Shown here piece after piece: positions 2,687-64,000 of a stretch of 64,000 nt of DNA. The stretch's first letter is position 1, and every line of letters begins with the position of its first letter. The stretch covers positions 4,149 through 68,148 of the forward strand of contig CAZWPN010000001.1 in assembly GCA_964635275.1 (NCBI GenBank), read 5' to 3'. Below the pieces are notes generated by a model. That model was not told the origin of the DNA and did not search any database. It saw only the letters and a program-made list of their open reading frames with translations. A program made the translations under genes and the position numbers. This DNA is from an uncultured Victivallales bacterium (GTDB lineage: Bacteria; Verrucomicrobiota; Kiritimatiellia; UBA8416; CAZWPN01).

Positions 2687-2999
2687 TACCGCTCCGGATA
2701 GTGTACTGTGCGCGTCGTGTCGAGGATGCGACGTCTCATACAGCGGCTGCTTCCCCGGATCAAAGGCGCTGACGAACGGCAAACACTCGCCATGACAAGC
2801 CCCCTTGCAGTCCGTTCCCACACACTGCGCGCGCGATGCTATCCGACGAACCAAGTGCGTTCAATAGAAATTTGGGCTTTCACCAAAGAGCGACATTCCA
2901 TGGTTGGCAATGGGCTGCCTGCTCTGTAGGATCACGCCGCGAAGAAAATGGTGATAGACTATGCACGGAATGAAGAACGTTTCTTCCCGCGGTTTGCCC

Positions 3000-4178
3000 A
3001 TGAGAGATGGAGAACGGCCCCACATACTCCACGTCATCACGAGGATGGACGCCGGCGGCGCGGCAACCAACACACTTCTCGGCATGGACGGGGTTCGTAA
3101 TCACGGTTTCGATGTGACTCTTGTGTACGGCCGGACCAATGATCCCGACGGAAGTATCTCGGCACGGGTCCGGGATATGGGCATACCGGCCGTGCTCATT
3201 CCGTTCCTCGTCAGGGATGTCTCGCCGATCAGCGACCTGCGGGCTGCGGCCGCCATATATAGAATAATGAAGGCGGGCAAGTTTGCCCTCGTGCACACAC
3301 ACACTTCGAAAGCGGGAGCTCTCGGACGCATCGCGGCCAGATGCCTGCGTACTCCGGTCATCCATACACCCCACGGGCACATATTCTACGGTTATTTCGG
3401 CCCCTTGGGTACAACCGTCTACACGCATGTTGAGCGTTTCCTCGCACGGTGGTCGCACGGGCTTGTTTCCCTTACCGAAGACGAAACCATTGAGTGCCTG
3501 AAGCGGGCGATCGGCCGGCGAGAACAGTTTCACACCATCCCAAGCGGAGTGCCACTGGCTCACTTCATGGGCATTGCCCGTCAGGATGGGCTCGATCTGC
3601 GACATCACTGGGGCCTCCACGACAAATCCGTGCTTTTCGTTTCGGCTGGACGGCTGGTCCCGATCAAGGGGTTTGACTCACTGCTGCGTTCATTTGCCGT
3701 TTGCAGAGCACACAATCCCCACTGTTTCCTTGGCATTGTCGGAGACGGGCCCGAACGCGCATCGCTGGAGAAGTTGGCCGCATCCCTCGGCGTGGATCGG
3801 TGCGTCAGGTTCGCCGGCCACATGCACGACATCCGCCCCGCACTCAGCGCGGCGGATGTCTTTGTGCTGGCCAGCAAAAACGAAGGCATGGGCCGCGTCA
3901 TTGTTGAAGCGATGGCGGCCGGACTGCCGGTGATCGCAACAAAGGTCGGAGGGATTGTGAACTTGCTTCGTTCCAACGACACCGGCATACTGGTCGCTAA
4001 GGACGATACGGTCGCACTGGCAGACGCCATGAGGGAACTCGCCGATGATCGGACCAGGAGGCTCCGGATGGGTGCATGCGCCCGCGCGGAAGTCTATCCC
4101 GAATATGATCTGGAAACCATGGTTGCGCGCCTTGCGGACCTTTATAGACAAACGATCGCAGGAACCGGGAAAACGTAG
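3000..4178 (+). CDS. GT4-family (GT-B) glycosyltransferase.
   Basis: ORF 2961..4178. N-terminus ILHVITRMDAGG; C-terminal NEGMGRVIVEAMAAGLPVIATKVGG (EX7E-type GT4 motif). Confidence 0.8.
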   Translation: MRDGERPHILHVITRMDAGGAATNTLLGMDGVRNHGFDVTLVYGRTNDPDGSISARVRDMGIPAVLIPFLVRDVSPISDLRAAAAIYRIMKAGKFALVHTHTSKAGALGRIAARCLRTPVIHTPHGHIFYGYFGPLGTTVYTHVERFLARWSHGLVSLTEDETIECLKRAIGRREQFHTIPSGVPLAHFMGIARQDGLDLRHHWGLHDKSVLFVSAGRLVPIKGFDSLLRSFAVCRAHNPHCFLGIVGDGPERASLEKLAASLGVDRCVRFAGHMHDIRPALSAADVFVLASKNEGMGRVIVEAMAAGLPVIATKVGGIVNLLRSNDTGILVAKDDTVALADAMRELADDRTRRLRMGACARAEVYPEYDLETMVARLADLYRQTIAGTGKT

Positions 4179-4226
4179 CGACGTCGGCCAACACGCGAGC
4201 CAGCCACCGACGTTTGACTGACCACC

Positions 4227-32217: not shown

Positions 32218-34146
32218 TTGCCACGGACGCAAGCGGGCTGTATTGTAACAGAGATGTGCGGCAAGTCATCCACTAACTGGGCATTTGACATGGCCTTGCC
32301 GGCGGCCTTTGCCCTGTGCGCATGGGGTTTCGGCGGCGAAGACTACCGCTTTTCAGGCGCCGCTCTCGCGGTGCTATTCTCCGTTGCGGCCATTACCGTG
32401 CTTTGCACAATGCGCGGCCGTGAAGAACTTGACCTCCCTCGACTGCGTTGCCTTCTTCCTGCAGCCTGCCTCATGGCTCTGGCTGTCGCCATGACAATCT
32501 TCTCCGTGAACCGGTTCGCTTCCCTCGTAGGCATCGTGCATACAGGCGCCCTGGCGGTTGCATTCCTGATGGTTGCTTCCGCGCCGGCAAGAAGTGCGCA
32601 CCGCATCCTGGCGGCGTGCGTCACGGTAGTAGGCATGCTTTCAGTCTACGGCTTCATGCAGTCCGTTGGTTTCTTCGAAAGCGGCTACTGGTATAATGGC
32701 CAGTTTGCCTCCCGGTTCGTCAACAGCGCACACTTCGGCGCCATGGTGGCCGTGGCAATAGTCGTTGGGGTTGGTCTAGCGCCATGCCTCAAGGGAGCGT
32801 GGCGTTTCGCCGTGCTGGCCTCCATCCCCGCAAACGCCGCCGCCATGCTGCAGACGAGGTCCCGGGCGGTATGGATACTAGCGGCGTTGGTCTACACATT
32901 TGTTTTCCTCTTCGCCGGCATTAGACTGCGCAGTCAGGAGAGAAGAACGGGGCGCTGGGTTCTCGCCGGCATGTTGCTTGCGGTACTATGTCTTGGCGCA
33001 GGGGGTTACCTGCTGCGCCACAGCATATCGGACCGCTTCGCTCAACTCGCGACGACGCAATTCCATGCGATCTTCCATCGGGCGGACATACTGCGGGACA
33101 GTGCGATGATGATCCGCGCCAACCCCATGGGCGTTGGCGCCGGGTGCTACGAGGATGCAATCCTCCGCTACAAGATTGGAGTGGACCGCAGCGTCGCAAA
33201 CCACGCGCACAACGAGGTGTTCGAAATAGTCGGCGAACTCGGCTGGGCCGCATTTCCCCTTCTAATCTGGCTCATCGTCGCAATCGGCAGGGATTTCCGG
33301 GCCGCTGCTTCACGGTGCGCTCCCAACTCCCTCTTGTTGGCGAGCGCGCTGGCGGCCGGACTTTCGATCTATGCCTTGCACAGTCTCGTTGATTTCCCGC
33401 TCCGTCTCATGGCGAACAGTCTCTTCGCTGCGTTCATCCTGGGAGCGCTTCTCAACAAAGAGTTCACGGGTGCCGAAGGCATGAGGACCTTGGCGGCAGG
33501 GCGGCTCGCGAAGCTGCTGCTGCCCGCACTGTGCGCCGCCCTGGCTGCGTTCTGCTGTCTGCAAGCGGCGTCTGCAATCTGGACGGCTTCGGCGGAATCG
33601 CACCTGTTGCGCCTTCGTATGGAGGATGCGCGCCAGGCGCTTGTGAAATCGTCGTTCTGGATGCCGCTGGATCCTCGGACGGCCTACCTGAGAGGCAACG
33701 CCGCCTACGCCATGTCGGCCATCGCGCCGGAACCGCGGAAGTCCGCGCTTAGATCTGAAGCCCTTGAGTGGTTGCGCCGGGCCGCCAGCATTGCTTCAAC
33801 TCATGCCGACACTCATCTGCGCCTTGCCTGGATTCGTGCCGATCTTGGACAGTCGAGGGATGCCATTGAATCTTTTCGCAAGGCCATAAGTTGCGATCCG
33901 AAACTAGGCATCTACCACTTCTATTACGCCGAGTACCTGCTGGCGCTCAAGCAATGGCACGAGGCGGCGAAGGAATACAGAACCGCATTGGAGACCTTCA
34001 ACGACAACAGCATAATAGGGGCGGAGAGTATTTTCAGGAAGATCCTCGTGCAGTCTGGAGACGAGGCAATTGCGGAAGAGGCATGCCCGTCCGAGCCAGG
34101 CTTCCGAGCCAGCCTCGAGAGGGTTTTGCGGGAGCGCAAGAAGTGA
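32218..34146 (+). CDS. O-antigen ligase/polymerase-family (Wzy_C/WaaL-like) membrane protein with a C-terminal TPR-repeat domain.
   Basis: About 10 TM helices; NHAHNEVFEIVGELGW (Wzy_C motif). The C-terminal ~200 aa have TPR-like repeats (AIESFRKAISCDPKLGIYHFYYAEYLLALKQWHEAAKEYRTALE). The real start is possibly at the internal ATG ~32254 or ~32290. Confidence 0.7.
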   Translation: MPRTQAGCIVTEMCGKSSTNWAFDMALPAAFALCAWGFGGEDYRFSGAALAVLFSVAAITVLCTMRGREELDLPRLRCLLPAACLMALAVAMTIFSVNRFASLVGIVHTGALAVAFLMVASAPARSAHRILAACVTVVGMLSVYGFMQSVGFFESGYWYNGQFASRFVNSAHFGAMVAVAIVVGVGLAPCLKGAWRFAVLASIPANAAAMLQTRSRAVWILAALVYTFVFLFAGIRLRSQERRTGRWVLAGMLLAVLCLGAGGYLLRHSISDRFAQLATTQFHAIFHRADILRDSAMMIRANPMGVGAGCYEDAILRYKIGVDRSVANHAHNEVFEIVGELGWAAFPLLIWLIVAIGRDFRAAASRCAPNSLLLASALAAGLSIYALHSLVDFPLRLMANSLFAAFILGALLNKEFTGAEGMRTLAAGRLAKLLLPALCAALAAFCCLQAASAIWTASAESHLLRLRMEDARQALVKSSFWMPLDPRTAYLRGNAAYAMSAIAPEPRKSALRSEALEWLRRAASIASTHADTHLRLAWIRADLGQSRDAIESFRKAISCDPKLGIYHFYYAEYLLALKQWHEAAKEYRTALETFNDNSIIGAESIFRKILVQSGDEAIAEEACPSEPGFRASLERVLRERKK

Positions 34147-50325: not shown

Positions 50326-51591
50326 ATGAGTCAGCAACACATCAATCGTCTCGTAGAGTTCATCGGCAAGGATTATCAGAAAATGTACCGGGAGCCGGGC
50401 GGTGAGATCCGGCACCCGTTCCTGACGCCGGGCAGCGACCAGTATTGTGATGTCCTGTGGGACTGGGATTCCTGGCTGACCGACGTAGCCTTGCGGCAAA
50501 TCGTACGGCGGCAGGGCGATCCCGCCGAGGGACAGAAGTTGGCGGTGTACGAGAAGGGATGCATTCAAAACTGGCTCGAATTTGCCAAACGCAGCAGTTG
50601 CGTGGGTTGGGTGCCCATCTGGGTGAACCGGACCGGGAACACCGTTCCGCAAGACGTCTATGCGCAGAACATGCACAAGCCATGCCTGGTACAGCATGCC
50701 GCCTTTATCGTGCGCGAGAACCAGGGGGATCTGGAGTGGCTGCGCGAGAATATCATGTTCCTCCAGTATTTCGTGAATAACTACCGCAACCACCACCGCC
50801 ATTCCTGCGGGCTCTACTTCTGGCAGAACGACGCGGCGATCGGAGTGGACAACGATCCCTGCACCTTCGGACGGCCACCGCGCAGCAGCGGCTCCATCTA
50901 TCTCAACTGCATGATGTACAAGGAGCTGCTCGCGCTGGTCTACCTGCTTGAACTCGCGGGGCTGGATGAGGTGGCCGCGCAGTACAAGGCGGACGCCGAA
51001 GCGCTGAAAGCCGCCGTCCGTGAGCACTGCTGGGACGAACGGGACGGCTTCTACTACAGCGTGGACCTGAACCTGACGTCGCCCGAGACGCAGCGGTGGA
51101 CCGCGCATTCCGGGCAGGTGCGGGACTGGCCCTGCCTGATCCAGCGCATCGGTGTGTGGTCGGGGTTCATGGCCATGTGGGCGGGTATTGCGACGCCGGA
51201 ACAGGCGAAGCGCATGGTGCTGGAGCACTATGGCAATACCCGTACCTTCAATGCGCCGTTCGGCATCCGGACGCTCTCGCGCATGGAGAAGATGTACAAC
51301 CTGCGCGCGGCTGGAAATCCCTCCTCCTGGCTGGGGCCGGTCTGGGGGATCTCGAACTACATGGTCTTCCGTGGACTGGTGCGCTATGGATTTGATGCGG
51401 AGGCCCGTGAGTTGGCCGGCAAGACGATCGCCCTGTTCGGGACGGACCTGGAAAAGCATGGAGGCCTGCACGAGTACTACCAGCCAGAGAACGGTGCGCC
51501 GATCCTCAACCACGGCTTCCAGAACTGGAACTACCTGGTTCTGAACATGATCGCCTGGCTGCGCGGCGAGGCGGTGGTAGAGGAGTTCTGA
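50326..51591 (+). CDS. Six-hairpin (alpha/alpha)6 glycoside hydrolase-like protein (GH63/GH125/GDE_C-like superfamily).
   Basis: 421 aa, Trp/Tyr-rich helical repeats (WDWDSWL, YFWQNDAAIGVDND, GPVWGISNYMVFRGL). No family-specific assignment possible by eye. Confidence 0.4.
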   Translation: MSQQHINRLVEFIGKDYQKMYREPGGEIRHPFLTPGSDQYCDVLWDWDSWLTDVALRQIVRRQGDPAEGQKLAVYEKGCIQNWLEFAKRSSCVGWVPIWVNRTGNTVPQDVYAQNMHKPCLVQHAAFIVRENQGDLEWLRENIMFLQYFVNNYRNHHRHSCGLYFWQNDAAIGVDNDPCTFGRPPRSSGSIYLNCMMYKELLALVYLLELAGLDEVAAQYKADAEALKAAVREHCWDERDGFYYSVDLNLTSPETQRWTAHSGQVRDWPCLIQRIGVWSGFMAMWAGIATPEQAKRMVLEHYGNTRTFNAPFGIRTLSRMEKMYNLRAAGNPSSWLGPVWGISNYMVFRGLVRYGFDAEARELAGKTIALFGTDLEKHGGLHEYYQPENGAPILNHGFQNWNYLVLNMIAWLRGEAVVEEF

Positions 51592-51592
51592 A

Positions 51593-53428
51593 ATGTATCG
51601 TTGCTTGAATGCCGGAAACGTTGGGGTTTCTCTCAATTGGGAGTCTTGTTTGCCGCTGGCAAGAGCCGCCGGATTCACAGGCTTTGACATTCCAGTGACT
51701 CCGGAAACGGATTGCGGAAAGGTCCGGGATCTGTTGGCTGCCCACAATCTGAGACCCGGCGGACAGCCGCTGCCATTCGATTTCCGCGGAAGCGAAGCCG
51801 CATTCCTCAACGGGCTGAAGACGCTCCGGGCTGTGGCCGAAAAGGCCGCTGGGATCGGCCAGACCCGGTTCTATATCTGGATCTGGCCATATTCGGACAC
51901 ATTGGCGTTCAAGGATAATTTTCGCTTTCACGCCGACCGACTCGGTCAGGCGGCGACAATAATGCGGGATGCCGGTTGCCGGCTGGGCCTGGAATTCCTC
52001 GGCCCGCGGCATTACCGGGAAGGGCACCCTTTCAGCTTTGTCCACACCCTCGGCGGCATGCTGGATCTCGCGGACGCCATCGGGCCCAACGCCGGCCTGT
52101 TGCTCGATTCCTGGCACTGGCACACCTCACTGGGAACCGTTGACGAAATCCGCGCGCTGAAGAACGAGCAGGTCGTCTACGTCCACATCAACGACGCGCC
52201 ACGCGGCATTCCGGTCGAAGATCAGTACGACTACGTTCGCGCCGTCCCCGGGGAAACGGGCGTTCTCAATCTGCCCGGTTTTCTCGACGCGTTGCGCACC
52301 ATCGGCTACGACGGACCAGTCGTCCCGGAGCCGTTCGTTTCCGCACTGTCAGCAATGCAGCCTGAAGCGGCGCTTCGCCGGGTGGCCACGGGGCTGGATC
52401 GCATTTGGGATGTGCGGCCCCGCCCGCCCCTCCCCTCGACGATGAAGGTCTTGGCGACCGGTCGCCGGAAAGCCTGGCTGGTTGATCTGCCCGTGCCACG
52501 TCCGCAGGGCAATGAAGTGGTCGTGAAGCTGCATGCCTGCCCTATCTGCGGCAGCAACTTGGGTGCCTTTCTTGGGGACGGGGAATGGGTCAATACCGGA
52601 CACGAGGGCGCGGGCGAGGTGGTGGCGGTGGCGGAGAGTCAGCGACTGCGTGTTGGCGACCGCGTTGCCTTGGCGCCGCTCAACGCCTGCGGCCGTTGTT
52701 CAGACTGCCTGCGCGGCGACGTCATCTTCTGCAGGAACCGGCCGGCCATTCACGGAACCTTCGCACCGTTCACCCGCGTGGCGGACGTGATGTGCGCCAA
52801 AGTTCCCGATGACCTGGACTATGATCACGCCTCGCTGATGGGCTGTGCGCTGGGGCCTGCCTACGAGGCCATCAAACGGCTGGGGGTTGGCGGTCTCGAC
52901 ACGCTGGTGGTCAGCGGCCTGGGGCCAGTAGGACTCGGCGCATCGGCACTAGCCTCAGCGATCGGCACACGCGTGGTTGCACTGGATCCCGAACCATTCC
53001 GTCGGGAACTGGCGGCAAGGATCGGCGCGGCAGTAACGCTGGACCCGTCGGCTCCCGACATCAGGGAAGCGTTGCTCCGCGCGGTGGGGGCCGATGGCAT
53101 CCGCAAGTCCATCGACTGTTCCGGCAAGGAATCAGCCGAACGCCTGTTGATCGATCTGGCTTCCATCCGGGGAGCGGTCGCATTCGTCGGCGAGAACGGG
53201 GGCACAATTCCCCTTTCCCCAAGCCGCGATATGATCCGCAAAGGGCTGACGCTTCTTGGCTGCTGGCATATGAACATGCTCGACGCTCCCGACCTGATCG
53301 AATTTCTTCGGCGTCATCCGGCCAAAGCCGGGTTGTTGATCTCGCATCGCTTTGCCTTCGACCACGCGCAGGAGGCATTCGAGGTATTCGCCTCGCGCCA
53401 GACCGCCAAGGTAATCCTGCATCCATGA
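51593..53428 (+). CDS. Fusion: xylose-isomerase-like TIM-barrel (sugar phosphate isomerase/epimerase) domain plus Zn-dependent medium-chain alcohol/polyol dehydrogenase (MDR) domain.
   Basis: N-terminus ...LGLEFLGPRHYREGHPF...LLDSWHWH (TIM-barrel metal-site style). C-terminus ACPICGSNLGAFLG...GHEGAGEVV...CGRCSDCLRGDVIFC (catalytic plus structural Zn sites) and GLGPVGLGA Rossmann. Confidence 0.6.
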   Translation: MYRCLNAGNVGVSLNWESCLPLARAAGFTGFDIPVTPETDCGKVRDLLAAHNLRPGGQPLPFDFRGSEAAFLNGLKTLRAVAEKAAGIGQTRFYIWIWPYSDTLAFKDNFRFHADRLGQAATIMRDAGCRLGLEFLGPRHYREGHPFSFVHTLGGMLDLADAIGPNAGLLLDSWHWHTSLGTVDEIRALKNEQVVYVHINDAPRGIPVEDQYDYVRAVPGETGVLNLPGFLDALRTIGYDGPVVPEPFVSALSAMQPEAALRRVATGLDRIWDVRPRPPLPSTMKVLATGRRKAWLVDLPVPRPQGNEVVVKLHACPICGSNLGAFLGDGEWVNTGHEGAGEVVAVAESQRLRVGDRVALAPLNACGRCSDCLRGDVIFCRNRPAIHGTFAPFTRVADVMCAKVPDDLDYDHASLMGCALGPAYEAIKRLGVGGLDTLVVSGLGPVGLGASALASAIGTRVVALDPEPFRRELAARIGAAVTLDPSAPDIREALLRAVGADGIRKSIDCSGKESAERLLIDLASIRGAVAFVGENGGTIPLSPSRDMIRKGLTLLGCWHMNMLDAPDLIEFLRRHPAKAGLLISHRFAFDHAQEAFEVFASRQTAKVILHP

Positions 53429-53468: not shown

Positions 53469-55889
53469 ATGAAAAATGCCTTGCTAGTTCCCGATCCCGA
53501 GCGACTCCGCCGCAAACTGACGAATCCCCCACCCTTACTGGCGAAACTCCAACGGCGTTTCCAGGAACGGCTTGCCGCGGATCCTGAGTTCCGCCGGCAT
53601 CACATCTTCCTGCCCGCGCTGCTCGGGGATCCGGCCGCCATTGCCGAAGCGAGGGAGCAGATCGTCACGCTTGCGGCAGACCCCGTCGAGTTGGCCACCA
53701 CCCGGCCCGGCGCCCGGACGCCGCCGCAGAACAGTCTCGATCATCATATCTGGTGCATCGCCCCGCGGGCCATGCGCATCGCCGCCTATTTCACGTGGCT
53801 TGACCTTCACGGCGTCTGGACGCCCGCGGAGCGTTGCACGATCGGCGCCGGGTTGCTGGACTTCTTCGACAACCATGTGATCCCGGTCTTGCGCGCGCGC
53901 ACCCCCGGCGGACACAATCAGCAGTTCTCGATGACATTCTGCAGTACCGTCGTTGGACATGCCTTTGCGGATGTGGACGGGGTTGCCGAACGCGCCTGCC
54001 GGTTGCGAAACTGGGCGTTCCCGAAGTTAACGCAGACGCTTGGACTCCTTCCCGCGAGCGGCTACTCCGGCGAAGGGACGACCTACCAGTCCGACGTGGT
54101 CGCGGCTTTGACCCTGTGGGCAGGCGTCTTTCTCAAACAGATCGGCGAACACGACGTCTGGAACCGCCGCTGGACGCCCAACGGATGGCGTATGGCCGAC
54201 ACGCTGCGGATGGAGGCACTGATGTGCAGTTGCGGCGGATGGCTGCCGCCGTGGGATCAGTACGGCTGGCAGCGGGTTCACAACTTGGCCGCACGCACGC
54301 TCTGGGCGGAGCTGTCCGGCGATGCCGGAATGCTGCGCATCGCCGAGGACGCCTGGGACGAGCCGCACCACCTGGCCTGGCGGCCCGACGACCGGCTGTG
54401 GACGCTGATCTACTGGCCGGAGGAGGAGGGGGAACGGTGGTCTGTGGTCGGTGATCGGTTACCGGTAACGGAGCGTCACGTCTCAGCATCGCCTGGACAA
54501 GGGCATAGTCAGCCGTCCGACAACCGAAAACCCACAACCGACAACCGGACACCGAACACCGTTCTTTCCGGCTGGAGTGTTCCGGTGGTCGGCGCCGCAG
54601 TCGAGCACCTGCCGCGGCGGCTGCGCGTCATGGCGGCCTGGGATGAATGCTCCGGCAGCCTCCAGGGCCTCGGCCGCGCCCAAGTCAACCCGAACCACCT
54701 GATGATCGACCTGGCCGGCGAACCGGTCACAGGCGACGGCTGGGATCTTGTCGGCCTTCGGCTGACCTCTGATGAGGCGCGCGAACGAACGAGGCACGCT
54801 CTCCCGCCGGTCCAGATGGAAATGATAGCAAGGCAGTACGGCAGCTTCGAGCGATGGGTGCGCGCGAGTGAGAACGGATTTCTGGGCGCATCCTGCGCGA
54901 TCATCGTGGACGGCTGGGACAGCTACTTCCCCCGCAAGGCCCGGCAGGGACAACTGGTGTTCGAGCGGCGGACACCGGAACGGCACACGTTCGCCGGCGA
55001 GGCGGCCCCGTACTATCAGCCGGCCTTTGACGTGACGCGGATGCGGCGTACCGTTTCGATGGGCGCTTCAGGCGTCACCTGGATCGTGGACGACATCCGG
55101 TCCGGGTCTCCGCACATGTTCACATGGCGGATGTGGCTGCGTGGCGGCTTGCGCCAGGCCGGCCCGCAGGCCCGGCGGCTCGATCTTCAATCCGGAGTCG
55201 CACTGGCTCTCGGCTGGCGTGTTGAGACGGAGGGAGAGGCCCGGCCTGTTGATGTTCGCGCCGAAAAATGCGAAGCCTATCCGCTGGCGCCGGACGATCC
55301 TCGGACCCACTGGCCCAGCAAGAATACCACGCGCTGTGAAGTGAACGCGACAGGACGGCGGGTCCGCTTTGTAACCTGCCTGGTGCCGGAGGGGGTCGAC
55401 GGATTGCAGGTGCGGCAGATGGCACCCGAGACCTGGGAGGCGGTCTGGGCCGGCGGAGCCGACACCTTCGTCCTGCCACCCGAGGTGGAAGCTACGCCGG
55501 ATCCCGCTCCGATCGTCGGCGCCCAGATTGCGGCTGAAGAAACCGTCTGCGATCTCGACGAGGCGCCCTATGGGCTGATCGCCGAACCCGATGCGGTGCT
55601 GCTCGCGGCGCTGGACAGCCCGCCGGTTGAGGCCTTTCGCCGCACCGGGGCGGCCATGCTGACCCTGACGATTCGAGGATGCGCAGACGCCATGCCCAAG
55701 ATCATGGCCCTGCTGGAAGATGCCCGCCAGAACTACACGGTCCACTCCGTGGCCGCCTGGTGCCTGGGGCGCGCGCAATACCGGCCCGCGCTTGAGCTGC
55801 TGCGAAGGGTCTCCCACATCCCCGAGGTCAACACGGCCCTCCGTGCCGGTTGGGCGGTGGAGCGGATGGAAGCAAGTAAGAGGAGGTAG
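53469..55889 (+). CDS. Heparinase II/III-like polysaccharide lyase-family protein (tentative).
   Basis: 806 aa; N-terminal alpha-helical toroid-like region followed by a beta-rich C-terminus. Assigned by overall architecture and composition only. Confidence 0.3.
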   Translation: MKNALLVPDPERLRRKLTNPPPLLAKLQRRFQERLAADPEFRRHHIFLPALLGDPAAIAEAREQIVTLAADPVELATTRPGARTPPQNSLDHHIWCIAPRAMRIAAYFTWLDLHGVWTPAERCTIGAGLLDFFDNHVIPVLRARTPGGHNQQFSMTFCSTVVGHAFADVDGVAERACRLRNWAFPKLTQTLGLLPASGYSGEGTTYQSDVVAALTLWAGVFLKQIGEHDVWNRRWTPNGWRMADTLRMEALMCSCGGWLPPWDQYGWQRVHNLAARTLWAELSGDAGMLRIAEDAWDEPHHLAWRPDDRLWTLIYWPEEEGERWSVVGDRLPVTERHVSASPGQGHSQPSDNRKPTTDNRTPNTVLSGWSVPVVGAAVEHLPRRLRVMAAWDECSGSLQGLGRAQVNPNHLMIDLAGEPVTGDGWDLVGLRLTSDEARERTRHALPPVQMEMIARQYGSFERWVRASENGFLGASCAIIVDGWDSYFPRKARQGQLVFERRTPERHTFAGEAAPYYQPAFDVTRMRRTVSMGASGVTWIVDDIRSGSPHMFTWRMWLRGGLRQAGPQARRLDLQSGVALALGWRVETEGEARPVDVRAEKCEAYPLAPDDPRTHWPSKNTTRCEVNATGRRVRFVTCLVPEGVDGLQVRQMAPETWEAVWAGGADTFVLPPEVEATPDPAPIVGAQIAAEETVCDLDEAPYGLIAEPDAVLLAALDSPPVEAFRRTGAAMLTLTIRGCADAMPKIMALLEDARQNYTVHSVAAWCLGRAQYRPALELLRRVSHIPEVNTALRAGWAVERMEASKRR

Positions 55890-55895
55890 GGAACC

Positions 55896-57632
55896 ATGGA
55901 TCTGCGAAAGCATGCTCGTCTATCGCTCAAATTCCTGGAAACGGCCACCAACCCGGCCATGCAGGATCTGCCGTATTTCTGGATCGACTTTGTGCGGAAT
56001 CCGCCGGAATTTGTTCATTGCATGGTGTTTGACGATGTCGAAAACTTCGGGCGCTGGCTCTACGCCATCAAGGCGGCGCAGGTCGTCAGCGGGACGGATG
56101 GGGCCGAAGGCACCCGCCGCGCGATGATTCGCGAGATTGATCGCCGTCGGAACGGCCCGTATGGTCTCGTCTACACTTCGGCCTACAGCGAGAAGTTCTG
56201 CCGCGGCTTCCTTGGCCATCACGCCTGGCTCTGGGGCAACCGCTCCGTCCTCCAAGGATGGGTCCTGTGTTACCGCTTCGCCAGCGATGCCCGCGAGCGC
56301 GAGGAGATGAGGCAGCGCATCGACACCATGGTCTCCGGTATGAACGAATTCGTCGTCCGGATCGGCGACTGCGTCTATTTCCCATCCCTCACGCCCACCC
56401 GTGACTTCCGCAAGCGCGACGACTACATCGAGCCCCGGGAGGCTGCAGGAAAACACTGGAACGCCATGTACGGCTCGGCGGAGCCGGACGACCCGCGCAT
56501 GCTGCCGCACATCAGCGACAGCGTCGGCGGAATGATCGCGCCTCTTGTTCAGTGGTACGAAGCGACCGGGAATCAGACCGCCCTGGATCTAGCGGTCGGC
56601 ATCAGCCGCACCATGGTGAAGCATCACCACACCAAGGGAGACCTGACGAATCCAATCGGCTGCTTCTCCAACAATCACGGCGTGCTCAACGCCGTGGCGG
56701 GCGTGCTGGCCGCCAACCGACACGTGCCCGACCGCCACCACCGGATCTGGGCCAAGACGCTCTGGGAGTACTACGTGGCCCGCTGTGCCTCCTCGTTCGG
56801 CTGGGCGCCGGAGAATGAGCGGGTGGACTACACGCGCCCGCTGGAGCGGCCGTCCTGTGAAGGCTGCGCCACCGTTGACATGGTTCGCGCCGGCGTCGAG
56901 CTGGCGCGCGCCGGCTTTTCCGAGTCGTGGGACATGGTGGAGCGTTTCACTCGCAACTACATGACCCAGGCACAAATCCAAGATGACGTGAAACCGTTCT
57001 CCCTGGAAGGCGTGCCACTCAACGATGTCAGCCGTGGCGGCATCGAATGCGAACCTGAAGCCTTGCGCGATCGCCGCGATATCTACACCCGCTGCATCGG
57101 CGCTTTGGCCGGCTGGGGCGCTCCGAACGACGTGCTGGACCCGCACGGCCGCTTCGCGATGTGCATCCAGAACTGCTGCAGCGGTCACTTGCCTCTGGGA
57201 ATGCTCGACGTGTGGAGCCAAACGGTCGTGCGCGACTCCGAGGGTGTCCGGATCAATCTGCTTCTGGACCATGAAAGCCCGGACGGTTCGGTAAAGGATC
57301 ATCAACCCACCGACGGCCGACTGGACATCCGGATGAAACGGGCCGGCACCGTGCGTGTGCGCATTCCCGACTGGGTTCCGGATGCCAAGGTGGCGATCCG
57401 TGTGGATGGCCGGGGCGTTCCGGCGGTATGGGAAGACAGGCCCAGTCGCTACATTCGCGTGAGCGACGTGGCCGCTGGAAGTACGGTTGCGGTGAACTAT
57501 CCGTTGCGAGCGCAGACAATGACGGAGCGACTTGGCGGCGAACTCTACACCACGCAATGGAAGGGCGATACGGTGGTTGGAATCGAGCCGCCGGGGCGGT
57601 TCATTCCAATCTTCAATGGACGCAAGGACTGA
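55896..57632 (+). CDS. GH127/DUF1680-like six-hairpin glycosidase (tentative).
   Basis: 578 aa; Cys-containing CEGCATVDM region and helical-repeat N-terminus. Low-certainty architecture-based call. Confidence 0.3.
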   Translation: MDLRKHARLSLKFLETATNPAMQDLPYFWIDFVRNPPEFVHCMVFDDVENFGRWLYAIKAAQVVSGTDGAEGTRRAMIREIDRRRNGPYGLVYTSAYSEKFCRGFLGHHAWLWGNRSVLQGWVLCYRFASDAREREEMRQRIDTMVSGMNEFVVRIGDCVYFPSLTPTRDFRKRDDYIEPREAAGKHWNAMYGSAEPDDPRMLPHISDSVGGMIAPLVQWYEATGNQTALDLAVGISRTMVKHHHTKGDLTNPIGCFSNNHGVLNAVAGVLAANRHVPDRHHRIWAKTLWEYYVARCASSFGWAPENERVDYTRPLERPSCEGCATVDMVRAGVELARAGFSESWDMVERFTRNYMTQAQIQDDVKPFSLEGVPLNDVSRGGIECEPEALRDRRDIYTRCIGALAGWGAPNDVLDPHGRFAMCIQNCCSGHLPLGMLDVWSQTVVRDSEGVRINLLLDHESPDGSVKDHQPTDGRLDIRMKRAGTVRVRIPDWVPDAKVAIRVDGRGVPAVWEDRPSRYIRVSDVAAGSTVAVNYPLRAQTMTERLGGELYTTQWKGDTVVGIEPPGRFIPIFNGRKD

Positions 57633-57661: not shown

Positions 57662-60600
57662 CTATGGCTTCAGCAGCTTGGCGGCGGCCTCCGCCACGGG
57701 CCCCTTCGTTGACGTTGCTGCATTCTTGAGGTAGAGCTTCCCCGCGCCGCCGGCCTGAAGAATCGTCGCCTTGGCCGCCTCGAATTCCACCTTGTTGGTC
57801 GAGCCAAGGCTGTTGATCGCCGCCGGCAGGAGCGCGACCTCGGCTGGCAGGAGCGCCGTGCTCAACGCGTTGGTGGAGATAAGCTGGCGAGTGAAGCCCG
57901 GCCCGCTCCAGAGAAGCGCAATGTTGTTCTGTCCGTCATTGCCGAACTGCAAGTCCACGCGGACCTGGTGCGTTCCGCTGCTCAGAACGATCGCGTTGGT
58001 CCAACTCTGCCCGTCGCCCGGAACCTGCTGGAGCGGGAGGGGCTTGGCGTCCATCCACAGTTGGACCTGGGCGTGTGCCCGCTGCACATACATGACATAC
58101 GCGCCAGGCTGGTTCACGAGCAGCGTTCCGGTCCACCGAGCGGAGATGTCGCGCTGTTGGTTGTTAGGCGCCGGGATGCGGCTATTCTCTATATTCACGG
58201 CAGCTTCAATCCGCGCAGCCAGTTGTCCATCAAACAGTTGTCCGGTGTAGTAGCGGCCCCTCAAGCCCATCACGGGCGCTACAAACGGAGCCCCGAGTGC
58301 CGCCGCGCGTGCGACAACGGCTGCATTGGGCGAAGCGCCGGCCGCTTCCACATAGGCTTTCAACTGTTCATATCCCTTCGGGTCCTTCGTGAGTTTGTTG
58401 AACTCTTCGGCGCTGCCGCCGCAGGCACGATCCAGAACCATGCAGAGCATGGCAGCTTCCGGAATCATCCGGAACGAGTTGTCGTTGCGAACCGCTTCAT
58501 AGAGTGGCACCGCGAGATCCGGCGGGATAAATCCGCCCAGCTCGCGGAGGCTGTCGAAGAGGTCCGGCACAATTGCGGAATCCGGAGCCTTTCGGATGCG
58601 TTCCACCAGCAGGGCCGCGGCGAGGGCGTCGTACTGCTCGGCCAGGATCGCGGCGGCGGCCTTGGCGACCGGATCGGGCTTGTACCGGATCGCGTTACGA
58701 AGGAAGTGAAGGCCCGCATCACCGGACTGGAGCAGAGTCGCCTTGGCCGCGCGGACCTCCGCCCAGTTCGTGGAGGTAAGGCTGTTGATGGCGCCGGGGA
58801 GTTTGGCGAGTTCGCTCTGCCAGAGCGGGGTGCGCAGAACGCTCGGGGGGATGATCTGTTTGCCGATGCCGGGGCCGTTCCAGTAGAGCGTGAGCTGGTT
58901 CCAATCGCCGCCGAGCTGGGCATCCAGACGTATCCGGTGCGTGCCTTTCGCGAGGGTGATCGTGTTGGTATAGCTGTTCTGATCACCCGGAACCTGCTGG
59001 AAGGACAGATTCCTTTCGTCAATCCGCAACTGTGCTTGAGCCTGCGCGCGTTCCACCCAGATGACATAGTCGCCCGGCTGGGTGACCAGCAAGGTTCCCG
59101 ACCATCGCGCGGAAAGATCCCGCTGCCAGTTGGCGGGAACCGGGTATTGCTGGTTCCGGAAACTGACCGAGGCATCGGCCCGTTCCGTTGCCAGTTCGTC
59201 CCGCTGCTGGCCGAGGTAGTAGCTGCCGCGCAATCCCGGCACGGGCGCCACAAAGGAGGGCCCGAATCGGCATGCGCTCATGACCACGGCGTCGTTGCTG
59301 GATGCAAGCGCCTGTGTGACATAGCCCTGCAGTTGTTCATAGGCCTTGGGATCCTTAACGAGCCCGTTGAAGCTTTCCGCATTTCCGCCGCAGGCCCGGT
59401 CCAGGACGATGCAGAGCATGGCGGCTTCCGGGATCATCCGGACATCCTTGTCCGCGCGCACCGCTTCGAGCAGGGCAGGCAGGCTGTCCGCCAGAATGAA
59501 CGCGGCCAGATCGCGGAGGTTCTCCAGCAGGTCGGGTACGATGGCGGAAGCCGGCGTCTTGCGGATACGTTCGACGAGCAAGGGCGCGGCCGAGGCATCG
59601 TACTGCTCGGCCAGGATCGCGGCGGCGGCCTTGGCGACTGCATCGGGCTTATGCCGGATCGCGTTACGAAGGAAGTGAAGGCCCGCATCGCCGGACTGGA
59701 GCAGAGTCGCCTTGGCCGCGCGGACCTCCGCCCAGTTCGTGGAGGTAAGGCTGTTGATGGCGCCGGGGAGTTTGGCGAGTTCGCTCTGCCAGAGCGGGGT
59801 GCGCAGAACGCTCGGGGGGATGATCTGTTTGCCGATGCCGGGGCCGTTCCAGTAGAGCGTGAGCTGGTTCCAATCGCCGCCGAGCTGGGCATCCAGACGT
59901 ATCCGGTGCGTGCCTTTCGCGAGGGTGATCGTGTTGGTATAGCTGTTCTGATCACCCGGAACCTGCTGGAAGGACAGATTCCTTTCGTCAATCCGCAACT
60001 GTGCTTGAGCCTGCGCGCGTTCCACCCAGATGACATAGTCGCCCGGCTGGGTGACCAGCAAGGTTCCCGACCATCGCGCGGAAAGATCCCGCTGCCAGTT
60101 GGCGGGAACCGGGTATTGCTGGTTCCGGAAACTGACCGAGGCATCGGCCCGTTCCGTTGCCAGTTCGTCCCGCTGCTGGCCGAGGTAGTAGCTGCCGCGC
60201 AATCCCGGCACGGGCGCCACAAAGGAGGGCCCGAATCGGCATGCGCTCATGACCACGGCGTCGTTGCTGGATGCAAGCGCCTGTGTGACATAGCCCTGCA
60301 GTTGTTCATAGGCCTTGGGATCCTTAACGAGCCCGTTGAAGCTTTCCGCATTTCCGCCGCAGGTCCGGTCCAGGACGAAGCACAGCATGGCGGCCTCGGG
60401 GATCATCCGGACGTCCTTGTCGGCGCGGATGGCTTCCAGCATGAAAGGCAGGCTGTCCGCTGGCACGAACACGGCCAGATCGCGCAGGTTATCAAGCAGA
60501 TCGGGCACGATGGCGGAAGCCGGCGTCTTGCGGATGCGTTCGACCAGCAGGGCCGCGGCCGGAGCGTCGTTTTGTTGCGACAGAATCGCGGCAGCCGCCT

Positions 60601-63600
60601 TGGCCGCTGGATCGGGCTTGTACCGGATCGCGTTGCGGAGGAAGGTCATGCCCGCATCACCGGCCTGAAGCAGCACTGCCTTGGCCGTACGGACCTCCGC
60701 CCAATTCGTCGAGGTGAGATTGTTGATCGCGCCGGGCAGTCTGGCCAGTGCGTCCGGCCACAGCGGAGTGCGCAGCGCCTCCGGCCCGATGATCCGCCGG
60801 CCAAATCCAGGCCCGGCCCAGTCTAGTTGCCCGCCAATATCCCAATCCCAACCGTCTCTGCCCTGTTGCAGCGTCACGCGAATCCGGTGGACTCCTGCGG
60901 CCACGGCGACCTTGTTGGTCCTGCGATTCCATTCGCCCTGGAACTGAACGGGCACGCCATCGATCGAGATGCCTTGCCATGCCCCGGAGTTGAGGTCGAA
61001 GGTATAGTCGCCTGCCCGCTCCACGTTCAGCCAGCCGTCCCACTGCACGGAAACATTCTTCATCTGGTTGCTCGGCCACGGATACGAACGATCCGGGATC
61101 GAAGCGACGGGATCAAGGCGATCGAGTGTCAACTCCTCGAAATACGCTCCGAGATAGTAGCGGCCGCGGAGTCCCGAGGCGGGCGCCACGAACGGCGCAC
61201 CGAACTGTGCGGCGCGCATGACGACGGCATCGTTGGTTGTGGCGCAGGCCTGTTCGACGTAGGACTTCAGTTGCTCGTGCGCCTTCGGGTCCTTCGCCAG
61301 CTTGTTGAACTCCTCAACCTTGCCGCTGCAGAGCCGGTCCAGGATGATGCAGAGAATGCTGGCCTCGGGGATCATCCGGCTATCCTTGTCCGCGCCGATG
61401 GCCTCGCAGAGGGATGGAACAAGATCCGGCGGGATGTTTGCGGCCAGGCTGCGCAGGTTCTCCAGGAGATCGGGGACGATGGCGGAGTCCGGGGTTTTGC
61501 GGATGCGCTCGATCAGCAGGACCGCAGTCGGGGCATCGTTACGTTCGGTCAGGATGGCGGCGGCTGTTTTTGCCATGGAGTCCGGTTTGTGGCGGATGGC
61601 GTTGCGCAAGAAGATGGGCGCGAACTCCTGCGCCTGTGCCAGTGTGGCGGCGGCGGCCCGCATGGTGGCCAGGTTCGTGGAGGCCAGGTTGTCGATGGCG
61701 GGGGGCAGGGTCAGCAGTGCACTGCGCCAGATGGGGGTGCGGAAGATATTCCCGGCGATAATCTGTTTCGCGACGTTGGTCCAGCTCCATGACATCTCGA
61801 AGACGGCGCCTTCCGCCTTCATGCGGTGCCAGCCGGGTTCCAGGGTGACCGGGGCTCCTGACCGTTCATTCCAGTCCCAGTTGTTGACGACGGGCCGATC
61901 GTCGATGAACAGGGCGGAGTTCCCTCCGGAACGTGAATAGAACGTGTAGGCGGCGGCCGTGTCGATGCGCAGGAAACCGGTCCAGCGCAGAGAGCTGTCA
62001 CCACGCCGGTTTTCCGGAAGCGGGTTCGGATTGGACCGGTCGTTCAGCTCGAACCTTCCCTCGAGCCGCTCCAGGGCGAGTTCGTCGAACTGCTGGCCAT
62101 AGAAGTACTGTCCGCGGAGGCCGCCGGTGAGGTATGGGGTAAACGGGATTCCGTATTCGCAGGCATTCACGACGACCGTGTCTTTGGCGGAGATCGTGGC
62201 CTGTTGGACGTAGCGCTGGAGTTGGTCGTAGCCCTTCGGGTCCTGGACGGCCTGGTTGAACCGGGTCTTGTCGTTGCCGTATACGTCGTTGAGGAGGGCA
62301 CAAAGCGCCGAGGCATGCGGGAGCATGGAGGCATCGGCGTCCTGCAGCATGGTCTTGTAGAGATACTGGATCTGGTCGGGCGCGAGGATCGGTGCCATGT
62401 TGCGCAACGCGACGGTCAACTCGGGAATTACCGGCGACGCGGGGTACTTCTCGATGCGCTCGATCAGGATGGCGGGCGCCCGAGTGTCGCGGCGGGCGAC
62501 CAGCCATTCCGCGGCGCGCGCGGCGACGGGGTCGGACTCGTTCCGGAGCGCATCGCGCAGGTAGATGTCGCCGGCCGTGAATCCCCATGCGAGCCGGGCT
62601 TTGGCTGCGCGCGCGGTGATCCAGTTCGTGGCGGTGAGATCCCGGATGGCCTGGCGTAGCGGAAGCACGGCATCCTTCCAGGGTGGAGAGCGAAGCACGC
62701 CGCCGTCCACGAGCCGCCGTGGCATATCCGGTCCGCTCATGTCAACTCGGATGCCGTATCCATGCTGTACCTGTACGAGGTCCGCGCTGATGGGCACCCA
62801 TCCGGGCTTAAGTTCGACGGTCATATTCGTTCCCGAACCTACAACTCCGGCCAGGATCTGCGTTCCGACCGATACCGAGCCACCGTCGTCCGCGCTTGCG
62901 TAGAATGTATACGTTCCGGCCTTCGGGATATCGAGGAACCCGGTCCACCGCGCGGAGAAGTTTTCGCTCGGCCCGCCCGGAAACGGCGGCGTGTTATAGC
63001 CCGAGATGGCGATTTGCGATTCGGGGCGCTCGTTGGTCAGGCTTCCGAATTGGGTGTCGGCGTAGTAGCGGGCGACGGCGGTGCTGAATGCGCCCGCCAG
63101 CGACCCTCCGTGTCCGCAAACCCAGGCCACAACCTGCGTATCCGTCGAAAGCATCGCGTTCTCTAGGTAGGTTCTGAGCGTCTCGAATGCGTTTGTGGCG
63201 CCGATTAGCTGGTTGTATGGCTCGACCGCCCCTCGGCATCTCTTCTCAAAAGCCGTGACGAGCACACCGGCCGACTCACGACGGACGAAATTTGTGTCGC
63301 AAAGAATGGTCTCATGCAGTGTAACAAATGCGTTGGTTTGGACATTGTCGATCCTGACATTCATGCCTTGAGCCATCAGCTCCAACAAGGGAATGAACTC
63401 GCGTCTTGCCAGTTGCACGGCAAAGAGGGGATAGGCCTTAGCGTCGGCCTGCTCGATAAGCAATCGGGTCGCTATCAAGGCGGCGGCATCCTTGTCTTCC
63501 CGCACGACCTTGCGCAAGAAGATCCGCCCTGTTTCGCCGGCATTGCTCAACTTCTCCTGTGCCACCTGAATGTAGCTTTGATTCTCGGAAGACAGGTACC

Positions 63601-64000
63601 TGACAGACAACCGGAGGTCCACCGCTTCCGCGCGCTCATCTGTCAGCCGGAGCATGATGTCGTACAGGGCCTTTTGCTGCTCCGGATCCTTGCGGGAATC
63701 CTGAAAGGTCTTGCAAAGCCGGATGGCTTCTTGGAATTGGGCGTCCTGTTCCAGTTCGTAAATCCTCTGCAAGTCCAGCGCAAAAGAGGCGTCGAACGCG
63801 ACCCGGACAACCTCCGACGTATCGGTAACGGAACCGCCTACCGGCATCACGACTGTTGCGTCTGCCGCAATTTCGTTGGTTTTTGCAGCAGGCGTGTTCG
63901 TTGCGGATTCAACGACTGTGGGTGGATTCGTTGCAGCAACGATCGGGAGCGGTGCCTGATGTTCGACCGATGGCAATGGCTGCTTCGCCGCCACTTCCGT
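57662..64000 (-). CDS. Giant (>2100 aa) repetitive protein made of at least six tandem modules of a HEAT/ARM-like helical segment plus a PA14 carbohydrate-binding domain. Partial: the N-terminus lies beyond the right edge.
   Basis: PA14 signatures recur roughly every 320 aa (FSARWTGFLDIPKAGTYTFYASADDG; LSARWSGTLLVTQPGDYVIWV; ISARWTGTLLVNQPGAYVMYV). HEAT-like blocks recur between them (FLRNAIRHKPD..AKAAAAIL...LLVERIRKTP.SAIVPDLL.NLR). The reading frame is open to the window edge. Confidence 0.75.
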   Translation of the reverse strand, partial: TEVAAKQPLPSVEHQAPLPIVAATNPPTVVESATNTPAAKTNEIAADATVVMPVGGSVTDTSEVVRVAFDASFALDLQRIYELEQDAQFQEAIRLCKTFQDSRKDPEQQKALYDIMLRLTDERAEAVDLRLSVRYLSSENQSYIQVAQEKLSNAGETGRIFLRKVVREDKDAAALIATRLLIEQADAKAYPLFAVQLARREFIPLLELMAQGMNVRIDNVQTNAFVTLHETILCDTNFVRRESAGVLVTAFEKRCRGAVEPYNQLIGATNAFETLRTYLENAMLSTDTQVVAWVCGHGGSLAGAFSTAVARYYADTQFGSLTNERPESQIAISGYNTPPFPGGPSENFSARWTGFLDIPKAGTYTFYASADDGGSVSVGTQILAGVVGSGTNMTVELKPGWVPISADLVQVQHGYGIRVDMSGPDMPRRLVDGGVLRSPPWKDAVLPLRQAIRDLTATNWITARAAKARLAWGFTAGDIYLRDALRNESDPVAARAAEWLVARRDTRAPAILIERIEKYPASPVIPELTVALRNMAPILAPDQIQYLYKTMLQDADASMLPHASALCALLNDVYGNDKTRFNQAVQDPKGYDQLQRYVQQATISAKDTVVVNACEYGIPFTPYLTGGLRGQYFYGQQFDELALERLEGRFELNDRSNPNPLPENRRGDSSLRWTGFLRIDTAAAYTFYSRSGGNSALFIDDRPVVNNWDWNERSGAPVTLEPGWHRMKAEGAVFEMSWSWTNVAKQIIAGNIFRTPIWRSALLTLPPAIDNLASTNLATMRAAAATLAQAQEFAPIFLRNAIRHKPDSMAKTAAAILTERNDAPTAVLLIERIRKTPDSAIVPDLLENLRSLAANIPPDLVPSLCEAIGADKDSRMIPEASILCIILDRLCSGKVEEFNKLAKDPKAHEQLKSYVEQACATTNDAVVMRAAQFGAPFVAPASGLRGRYYLGAYFEELTLDRLDPVASIPDRSYPWPSNQMKNVSVQWDGWLNVERAGDYTFDLNSGAWQGISIDGVPVQFQGEWNRRTNKVAVAAGVHRIRVTLQQGRDGWDWDIGGQLDWAGPGFGRRIIGPEALRTPLWPDALARLPGAINNLTSTNWAEVRTAKAVLLQAGDAGMTFLRNAIRYKPDPAAKAAAAILSQQNDAPAAALLVERIRKTPASAIVPDLLDNLRDLAVFVPADSLPFMLEAIRADKDVRMIPEAAMLCFVLDRTCGGNAESFNGLVKDPKAYEQLQGYVTQALASSNDAVVMSACRFGPSFVAPVPGLRGSYYLGQQRDELATERADASVSFRNQQYPVPANWQRDLSARWSGTLLVTQPGDYVIWVERAQAQAQLRIDERNLSFQQVPGDQNSYTNTITLAKGTHRIRLDAQLGGDWNQLTLYWNGPGIGKQIIPPSVLRTPLWQSELAKLPGAINSLTSTNWAEVRAAKATLLQSGDAGLHFLRNAIRHKPDAVAKAAAAILAEQYDASAAPLLVERIRKTPASAIVPDLLENLRDLAAFILADSLPALLEAVRADKDVRMIPEAAMLCIVLDRACGGNAESFNGLVKDPKAYEQLQGYVTQALASSNDAVVMSACRFGPSFVAPVPGLRGSYYLGQQRDELATERADASVSFRNQQYPVPANWQRDLSARWSGTLLVTQPGDYVIWVERAQAQAQLRIDERNLSFQQVPGDQNSYTNTITLAKGTHRIRLDAQLGGDWNQLTLYWNGPGIGKQIIPPSVLRTPLWQSELAKLPGAINSLTSTNWAEVRAAKATLLQSGDAGLHFLRNAIRYKPDPVAKAAAAILAEQYDALAAALLVERIRKAPDSAIVPDLFDSLRELGGFIPPDLAVPLYEAVRNDNSFRMIPEAAMLCMVLDRACGGSAEEFNKLTKDPKGYEQLKAYVEAAGASPNAAVVARAAALGAPFVAPVMGLRGRYYTGQLFDGQLAARIEAAVNIENSRIPAPNNQQRDISARWTGTLLVNQPGAYVMYVQRAHAQVQLWMDAKPLPLQQVPGDGQSWTNAIVLSSGTHQVRVDLQFGNDGQNNIALLWSGPGFTRQLISTNALSTALLPAEVALLPAAINSLGSTNKVEFEAAKATILQAGGAGKLYLKNAATSTKGPVAEAAAKLLKP
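58622..60390. repeat. Near-perfect in-frame tandem direct repeat, 2 x 969 bp (about 700 bp identical, flanks >95%), inside the giant PA14 gene. More diverged copies at the same period extend to ~62.6 kb.
   Basis: Identical ORF translations are reported at 58465..59253 and 59434..60222, at 58719..58904 and 59664..59873, and at 59019..59273 and 59988..60242, all offset by 969 nt. Direct sequence comparison confirms this. Confidence 0.9.

Follow-up and report, generated by a model that had tools for sequence, protein, structure and literature searches.

How two neighbouring units of a single gene came to share a long stretch of identical DNA is the question raised by the giant modular lipoprotein gene at the right-hand end of the window, the 64,000-nucleotide (nt) stretch of contig CAZWPN010000001.1 (positions 4,149 to 68,148; assembly GCA_964635275.1, an uncultured Victivallales bacterium) that was analysed here by computation. 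A preliminary description of this DNA had reported two adjacent, in-frame 969-base-pair (bp) units at 58622-60390 as a perfect tandem duplication, indicative either of a very recent duplication or of ongoing concerted recombination. The identity proved to extend over 673 bp, and is best explained, probably though by no means certainly, as a recent gene-conversion tract between neighbouring, otherwise old and diverged 969-bp modules of the one gene.

Extent of the exact repeat

Comparison of the window with itself at a shift of 969 nt, scripted because the longest period covered by Tandem Repeats Finder is 500 and the array therefore went unreported by that program, returned a single unbroken exact match of 673 bp, with 58722-59394 identical to 59691-60363. 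The repeat period corresponds to 323 codons, the reading frame is open throughout, and the period-969 signal spans four units from about 57950 to 61770. Outside the 673-bp tract, the adjoining few hundred bases on one side are 76-90% identical, and those on the opposite side 58-84%. The principal features are as follows, the first being identified from an open frame of 2112 codons that is a 100% match to the protein P0001.

57662..beyond 64000, minus strand: giant modular lipoprotein gene, product P0001, 2139 amino acids (aa)
59691..60363, minus strand: exact repeat, gene-proximal (5') copy, running from late in helical domain 3 through all of PA14 domain 4 into the early part of helical domain 4 (unbroken 673-nt match at the 969-nt shift)
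58722..59394, minus strand: exact repeat, gene-distal (3') copy, running from late in helical domain 4 through all of PA14 domain 5 into the early part of helical domain 5 (first 60 nt reproduced by an independent JGI contig, L008)
59395..59690, minus strand: unique 296-bp spacer between the exact copies, the middle of helical domain 4 (mosaic by informative sites)
58622..58721, minus strand: near-identical flank of the tract, with 9 mismatches per 100 nt to its partner, including the sample-polymorphic site 58721 (from the mismatch list)

Over the span originally singled out (58622-59421 against 59591-60390) there are 12 mismatches in 800 bp, equivalent to 98.5% identity, and the near-identity of the adjacent units was thus confirmed. 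A perfect 969-bp duplication was not: the whole units, modules 4 and 5 (M4 and M5), differ at 121 of 969 nt, and are 87.5% identical as nucleotides and 86.4% as amino acids. When the 338 mismatches present over 1900 in-register columns were permuted, the longest exact run recorded in 20,000 trials was 78 nt as opposed to the 673 nt observed, a run for which the analytic bound is about 1e-54; elsewhere in the window, over the other 57.6 kb, exact direct repeats reach at most 27 nt. These values establish that the repeat is real, and exclude chance as its origin. The identical stretch also extends well beyond expectation from the divergence of the flanking paralogous DNA, as does that of a gene-conversion tract.

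The tract is out of phase with the module. Each copy (residues 1240-1464 and 1563-1787 in P0001 numbering) takes in the terminal 53 codons of a helical domain, the complete PA14 domain that follows and ~57 codons at the start of the helical domain after that, and both edges of the tract fall in helical-domain DNA.

A chimeric module between diverged neighbours

In P0001, a linker and a first helical domain precede six modules, each made up of a PA14 domain (~135 aa) followed by a helical domain (~188 aa), the last of the helical domains being truncated; a motif, GLRG.YY, recurs every 316-323 residues. In gene order, the corresponding DNA is divided as follows.

63074..64000, minus strand: N-terminal linker and first HEAT-like domain (tblastn); the signal peptide and lipobox lie outside the window
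62123..63073, minus strand: module 1, about 317 aa, start approximate (Pfam PA14/GLEYA match near residue 348; tblastn of module 4 against the window)
61175..62122, minus strand: module 2, 316 aa (motif spacing and module table)
60206..61174, minus strand: module 3, 323 aa; in comparison with module 4, identity is only 42% in the PA14 domain but 86% in the helical domain
59237..60205, minus strand: module 4, 323 aa, a chimera with the head of module 5 and the tail of module 3 (informative sites; AlphaFold2 model)
58268..59236, minus strand: module 5, 323 aa, PA14 domain and HEAT-like solenoid (GLRG.YY motif spacing)
57665..58267, minus strand: module 6, 201 aa, PA14 domain and truncated helical domain forming the protein C-terminus (the same 201-aa terminal module is present in the relatives C and E described below)

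Inside the tract, there are zero differences at about 163 synonymous sites (synonymous divergence, dS = 0). Between M4 and M5, dS is 0.18 just beyond the tract (module nt 514-612) and 1.07 at nt 613-969, and between M3 and M4 it is 0.80 at nt 406-612 and 0.38 at nt 613-810. Three-way comparison demonstrated that, as far as about nt 600, all informative sites of M4 are shared with M5, and that from about nt 625 most are shared with M3. The resultant mosaic is evident within the 296-bp spacer, the 5' part of which is M5-like and the 3' part M3-like, and which differs at roughly 60 sites from its partner one period away; it also contains 21 sites (nt 516-762) private to M4, shared with neither M3 nor M5. 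From these private substitutions it follows that a third copy of the helical domain existed well before the tract formed, and that a fresh duplication alone is insufficient to account for the middle unit.

Of the two origins initially entertained, concerted recombination accordingly fits a tract of dS 0 set between flanks of dS 0.18-1.07 and beside a mosaic middle unit; a fresh duplication, which would give 969 identical bases, does not. The accompanying estimate of ~60-75% similarity for the other modules holds roughly for the neighbours (M3-M4 68% and M3-M5 59% at nucleotide level), the outer modules being much lower.

Independent contigs of the locus

The neighbouring gene was used as an anchor to find independent contigs of the locus.

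55896..57632, plus strand: glycoside hydrolase family 127 (GH127)-like protein, 578 aa, convergent neighbour of the giant gene (Pfam match)

This protein is encoded residue for residue on four other contigs (L008-L011), one from JGI and three from different Logan runs, all of which also carry the 3' end of the giant gene. Relative to the window, two of the Logan contigs are identical and the other two contigs have three single-nucleotide polymorphisms (SNPs) each. Position 58658 is the last base of each of the three Logan contigs; the first 31-mer to occur twice (58629-58659) ends one base further on, and a k=31 graph would have to branch here were the repeat present. The JGI contig, L008, continues to 58781, 60 nt into the tract, and within the gene differs only at 58721, the first differing site beside the tract, where it has G, the base of the paralogous site 59690. 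The repeat junction thus exists in other samples; the contigs do not give the number of units or establish perfect identity. No independent contig was obtained by way of the spacer, the repeat alone or the 5' part of the gene, and none of the five predicted partial products was present in the protein collection.

The SNPs that distinguish the window from L008 and L010 are at 58721, 57641, 57646 and 57428, two of them located in the 29-nt spacer between the convergent genes, one in the GH127-like gene, and 58721 beside the tract.

Relatives of the giant gene

A word-indexed protein search with the 2112-aa translation as query returned only P0001 and one 33% homologue, and missed relatives sharing 50-85% identical modules that were subsequently recovered with a shorter query and an exhaustive profile search; the short list of matches to so repetitive a query is therefore no evidence of rarity. 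In the exhaustive search, about 48 cluster representatives matched the whole module, with 2-10 stretches per protein. Adjacent modules are usually 26-55% identical, and reach 71-94% in six of the 43 proteins examined. A scan of a genome collection that does not include the source genome found only two distant fragments, in Planctomycetota metagenome-assembled genomes (MAGs). No paper describing this module family was found in the literature.

Three closer relatives were recovered, of which C and E represent a sister lineage. Allele C was found by searching metagenomes, in which an earlier scan had found none, with a hand-made degenerate DNA pattern for the helical-domain motif FLRNAIR[HY]KPD: contig SESE01000311.1 (L004, 166-5553) encodes a 1795-aa lipoprotein of the same architecture with five modules. 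Searching with C led in turn to D (P0008; 2112 aa, partial; L005, 3162-9498), from a MAG annotated by NCBI as Kiritimatiellia, the contig of which ends inside a module pair 89-94% identical. Via the 90% cluster of C, a third relative, E (P0010; 2118 aa, six modules), was located in two separate assemblies (L007, 1235-7591; and L006, 4040-10396, hereafter E2).

Allele C is E2 minus exactly 969 nt and otherwise identical, a picture that assembly collapse would also give. The junction lies inside a 131-162-nt stretch over which E modules 4 and 5 are identical, and the downstream flank of C, compared over 2 kb with L007, is identical. The copy-number variation in length that had been considered possible for this protein would be represented by alleles of 1795 and 2118 aa differing by exactly one 969-bp unit, in a family with about 2-10 modules. 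E and E2 differ by a single nucleotide, at gene position 4203 on the edge of the identical stretch, where the variant is the base found at the paralogous site 5172; it looks like a polymorphism in the boundary of a conversion tract. Comparison of D with E gave 93-98% nucleotide identity except for a ~1.5-kb block (gene positions about 1900-3500) which has no counterpart in E, and which matches modules 2-3 of the window gene at 83-93% identity. Despite this window-like block, the N-terminal domains of D and the window gene are only 37% identical as amino acids. Because the synteny of the window gene differs from that of the C/D/E locus, it is not the positional orthologue of these genes. Taken together, the one-unit indel, the edge SNPs and the imported block indicate that duplication, deletion, homogenisation and exchange of modules are recurrent in the family.

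The 33% homologue (P0002; L001, 10001-16729) has six modules, none of them near-identical, and positional orthology of modules between it and the window protein could not be established. Its modules alternate, module 2 resembling module 4, and module 3 resembling module 5, at a spacing of about 1920 nt, which suggests an old duplication of a two-module block. Directly downstream of P0002 is a gene for a 307-aa retron-type reverse transcriptase (L001, 17189-18112; PADLOC RT_XIII, E 1e-80), preceded by a 459-bp spacer (16730-17188) with short inverted repeats; the enzyme probably belongs to a retron defence element that has no connection with the repeat gene.

Origin of the identical tract

The gene-conversion explanation would involve two episodes. 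In the older of these, two modules would have crossed over unequally within their solenoids to give an extra module with a chimeric solenoid, the switch lying near module nt 612-625, after which the module copies would have diverged. A recent non-reciprocal homologous recombination would then have overwritten 673 bp, comprising the tail of one solenoid, the whole PA14 domain and the head of the next solenoid, with conserved solenoid-coding DNA supplying the homology in which recombination may begin and end. Such a conversion would account for the one PA14 domain that modules 4 and 5 now have in common, and the long perfect direct repeat is itself DNA on which additional 969-bp units could be gained or lost. 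A dependence on recombination of the RecA type, and the order of events from old duplication to conversion, are inferred.

A competing proposal, that one unequal crossover very recently duplicated a single 969-bp unit in tandem and that nothing further occurred, accommodates the period-969 structure and the presence of an identical PA14 domain in two modules; moreover, a module 4 with the head of M5 and the tail of M3 is the product expected of an unequal crossover between helical domains, and the nearest complete relatives have five or six modules. It is nonetheless an improbable one, since only 673 of the 969 bases that it would render identical are so, and the other 296 bp contain the roughly 60 differences and 21 M4-private sites already described, at a dS of 0.18-0.38 or more; random mutation cannot have left 673 bp untouched while altering about 60 sites in 296 bp. 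Considerably less probable still, to the point of being remote, is that the identity was kept by purifying selection on the protein, or made by a diversity-generating or similar retroelement, notwithstanding that the tract encodes a complete folded domain and that a reverse-transcriptase gene adjoins the distant homologue P0002. Selection cannot remove synonymous differences, of which the tract has none at its synonymous sites as opposed to a dS of at least 0.18 next door. With respect to retroelements, the window has no reverse transcriptase beside the gene and no other copy of the module, the mismatches between units show no adenine bias, and the L001 enzyme, being retron-type, has no template/variable repeat pair. 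The gene was consequently rejected as the target of a diversity-generating retroelement. A tblastn search of the window with module 4 found no silent module cassettes elsewhere in it.

An artefact of assembly or polishing, whereby similar copies were homogenised by bubble-merging or multi-mapped polishing, or a repeat loop was traversed the minimum number of times so that the true number of units differs, is rather unlikely, although it retains more credibility than either of the preceding proposals. The window sequence is a metagenome contig, and the assembly hazard foreseen in the preliminary description is real: the Logan contigs stop where the first repeated 31-mer would break a k=31 graph, the JGI contig stops within the tract, the contig of relative D ends inside its own repeat, and the C/E2 difference of exactly one unit is also that expected from collapse. 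Against an artefact, the 296-bp spacer is joined to the repeat on both sides, and at least two copies of the repeat must therefore exist in any linear genome that contains the spacer. Three independent runs gave the same branch point in the graph, and both the flank and the opening 60 nt of the tract recur independently in L008. Furthermore, identity drops abruptly from 100% to about 75-90%, an edge sharper than homogenisation by mapping would be expected to leave, and the tract-edge variants are linked to copy-specific bases 31-37 nt away, within the compass of one read.

A number of considerations nevertheless weigh against the gene-conversion explanation itself. A similar pattern would result had a segment of a diverged allele been imported from another strain. 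The source contig of the window, 84,569 bp long, is the sole assembly to cross the repeat, the four other contigs of the locus stopping there, and an assembler or polisher could have exaggerated the perfection of the identity, just as repeat-spacer iterations could exceed the number assembled. The difference between C and E2 could likewise be assembly collapse instead of a real deletion. Donor and recipient of the conversion are indistinguishable, both copies being identical. Finally, glycan binding and surface exposure of the product are predicted from domain homology and the lipobox only.

A broader proposal, offered tentatively and as a possibility on the doubtful side, is that the giant gene belongs to a family of lipoproteins of bacteria of the Planctomycetes-Verrucomicrobia-Chlamydiae (PVC) group in which conserved HEAT-like linkers serve as recombination handles to duplicate, delete, homogenise and swap diverse PA14 cassettes, both within genes and between diverged genes, populations thus holding a combinatorially variable multivalent ligand-binding array. 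If this is true, an ongoing process would have been captured in the 673-bp tract, in the one-unit indel and in the imported 1.5-kb block.

Architecture and predicted fold of the protein

The stop codon of the giant gene is at 57662-57664, and its first 27 codons lie past the right end of the window; the guanine plus cytosine content by codon position is 0.65/0.47/0.77. The first 27 residues of P0001, located outside the window, form a signal peptide with the lipobox LLAAG-C (N-terminus MLIIRCIGGMVLSASLLAAGC). By inspection of the pattern only, P0001, which starts MLIIRCIGGMVLSASLLAAG-C, has the hallmark of a lipoprotein; the relatives have LLYAAG-C and LTTVG-C, and a lipobox-like pattern is present in most members of the family. 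On the strength of the lipobox and of domain homology, P0001 would be exposed at the cell surface.

The Pfam PA14 profile (PF07691) matches P0001 with 164.2 bits against a cut-off of 24, in six stretches, one per module. The helical domain scores below the Pfam HEAT threshold (16 bits as opposed to 27.7), and tblastn comparisons showed weak similarity between the N-terminal domain and the helical portions of the modules. Across modules 2-5, the helical domains are 63-86% identical as amino acids; the PA14 domains, the identical pair excepted, are 26-52% identical. In a comparison of modules 3 and 4, the nonsynonymous divergence (dN) was 1.0 in the PA14 domain as against 0.09-0.14 in the helical domain. 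Such a contrast would fit diversified binding cassettes held between conserved scaffolds.

An AlphaFold2 model of module 4 (mean predicted local distance difference test score, pLDDT, 90.4) has a beta-sandwich, with strands in residues 1-128, and then eleven helices in residues 140-314, and an equivalent model of a helical-PA14-helical segment (pLDDT 90.9; predicted template modelling score, pTM, 0.86) suggests that its three domains may adopt a defined mutual orientation. The best structural matches of the sandwich are the PA14 domains of RsgI3, anthrax protective antigen, RTX adhesins/MpIBP and Flo/Epa/Cea1 adhesins, and those of the helices are HEAT/ARM solenoids, importin-beta, exportins and alphaRep. 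The PA14 domains are consequently regarded as putative carbohydrate- or ligand-binding domains; glycan binding by the modules is predicted from the PA14 fold in combination with the neighbouring glycoside-hydrolase-like genes, and the exported HEAT-like domain is predicted to serve as a spacer or scaffold between the PA14 domains.

Relationship to known systems

Recombination between long in-frame repeats is a standard bacterial route to variation in envelope proteins, and its documentation comes chiefly from pathogens. Duplicated tuf genes and pilin or opa cassette systems likewise undergo gene conversion and concerted evolution. The present tract resembles the products of tuf, pilin and opa conversion in the sharp edges of an identical segment set in older divergence, the mosaic middle copy and the edge polymorphisms with paralogous bases; it differs from them in that the conversion is intragenic, involving adjacent in-frame modules, with no silent cassette store found in the window and no programmed machinery evident.

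The best described proteins of variable repeat number are the periscope and variable-length repeat surface proteins, represented by SasG/Aap, Rib/alpha C, the SHIRT arrays of Sgo_0707 and M protein (PMC8201768, PMC9704523), for which Whelan et al. emphasise that long reads are required to count the repeats. In common with these, the giant gene encodes an envelope protein in which tandem folded units, with high DNA identity within one neighbouring pair, form one polypeptide; recombination between repeats is the proposed driver, the repeats break short-read assemblies, and near-identical alleles would differ in unit number, in this instance five as against six modules in the sister lineage, where collapse is also possible. 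Nevertheless, the giant gene is not a clean member of this class. Only one near-identical pair is present, the other neighbouring modules of the 969-bp array being 59-68% identical as nucleotides with PA14 domains 26-52% identical as amino acids. Its repeat is a two-domain, 323-aa module that includes a putative ligand-binding domain, in place of an inert stalk with one distal binding domain, and nowhere in P0001 is there a separate binding domain distal to the repeats. As its anchor, the protein of this diderm PVC bacterium has a lipobox, as opposed to a Gram-positive cell-wall anchor or a type I secretion signal, and replacement of cassettes occurs here besides change in length.

With the PA14 binders of solved structure (RsgI anti-sigma factors with tandem PA14 sensors, 6qdi and 6qe7; the RTX adhesins/MpIBP, 6m8m and 6x95; and yeast Flo/Epa/Cea1), the PA14 domains share only 10-26% sequence identity, the likeness being one of predicted fold, and alternation with HEAT-like solenoids was found in none of the solved structures returned. 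By comparison with other HEAT/ARM proteins (importin-beta, alphaRep and the YibA type), the domain in P0001 is predicted to be exported and to lie between PA14 domains.

The same footprint of recombination is now evident in environmental, uncultured PVC bacteria, and in an undescribed protein family. As the variable unit is a full two-domain module with a putative carbohydrate-binding domain, variation would alter valency and cassette content besides length; a consequence of the gene-conversion explanation is that both module number and cassette content would vary within and between populations. In practical terms, the locus is a predictable point of breakage or collapse in short-read metagenome assemblies, and database module counts for the family, that of the window gene included, are not trustworthy without long reads.

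Genomic context

Scans of the window for Rfam families, tRNAs, promoters and terminators found nothing relevant. Positions 1-36200 are occupied by an envelope-polysaccharide cluster with genes for several glycosyltransferases of families GT4, GT2 and GT9, one asparagine-synthase-like protein and one epimerase/dehydratase, together with a Wzm/Wzt ATP-binding cassette (ABC) transporter (11938-14167) and an O-antigen-ligase-like protein fused to tetratricopeptide (TPR) repeats (32218-34146). Also present in the window are infB, truB, ribF, a BamD-like gene and gpsA. No close relative of IF-2 was found: the best match is 70% identical, and the best among named entries are MAGs of Kiritimatiellae, Verrucomicrobia and Lentisphaerae at 53-62%, which would place the organism among PVC bacteria, probably in the Kiritimatiellota.

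Genes of sugar metabolism lie directly beside the giant gene, namely a GH63/MGH1-like gene (50326-51591) and the GH127-like gene already described (55896-57632). Between these two are located a gene for a 611-aa protein in which a xylose-isomerase-like TIM barrel is fused to a zinc-dependent alcohol dehydrogenase (51593-53428), and a second (53469-55889) encoding a protein of 806 aa that has no Pfam match, within which a 21-bp tandem repeat is present in 2.1 copies (54517-54561). The 806-aa protein is kept beside the GH127-like gene in other samples (L008 and L009).

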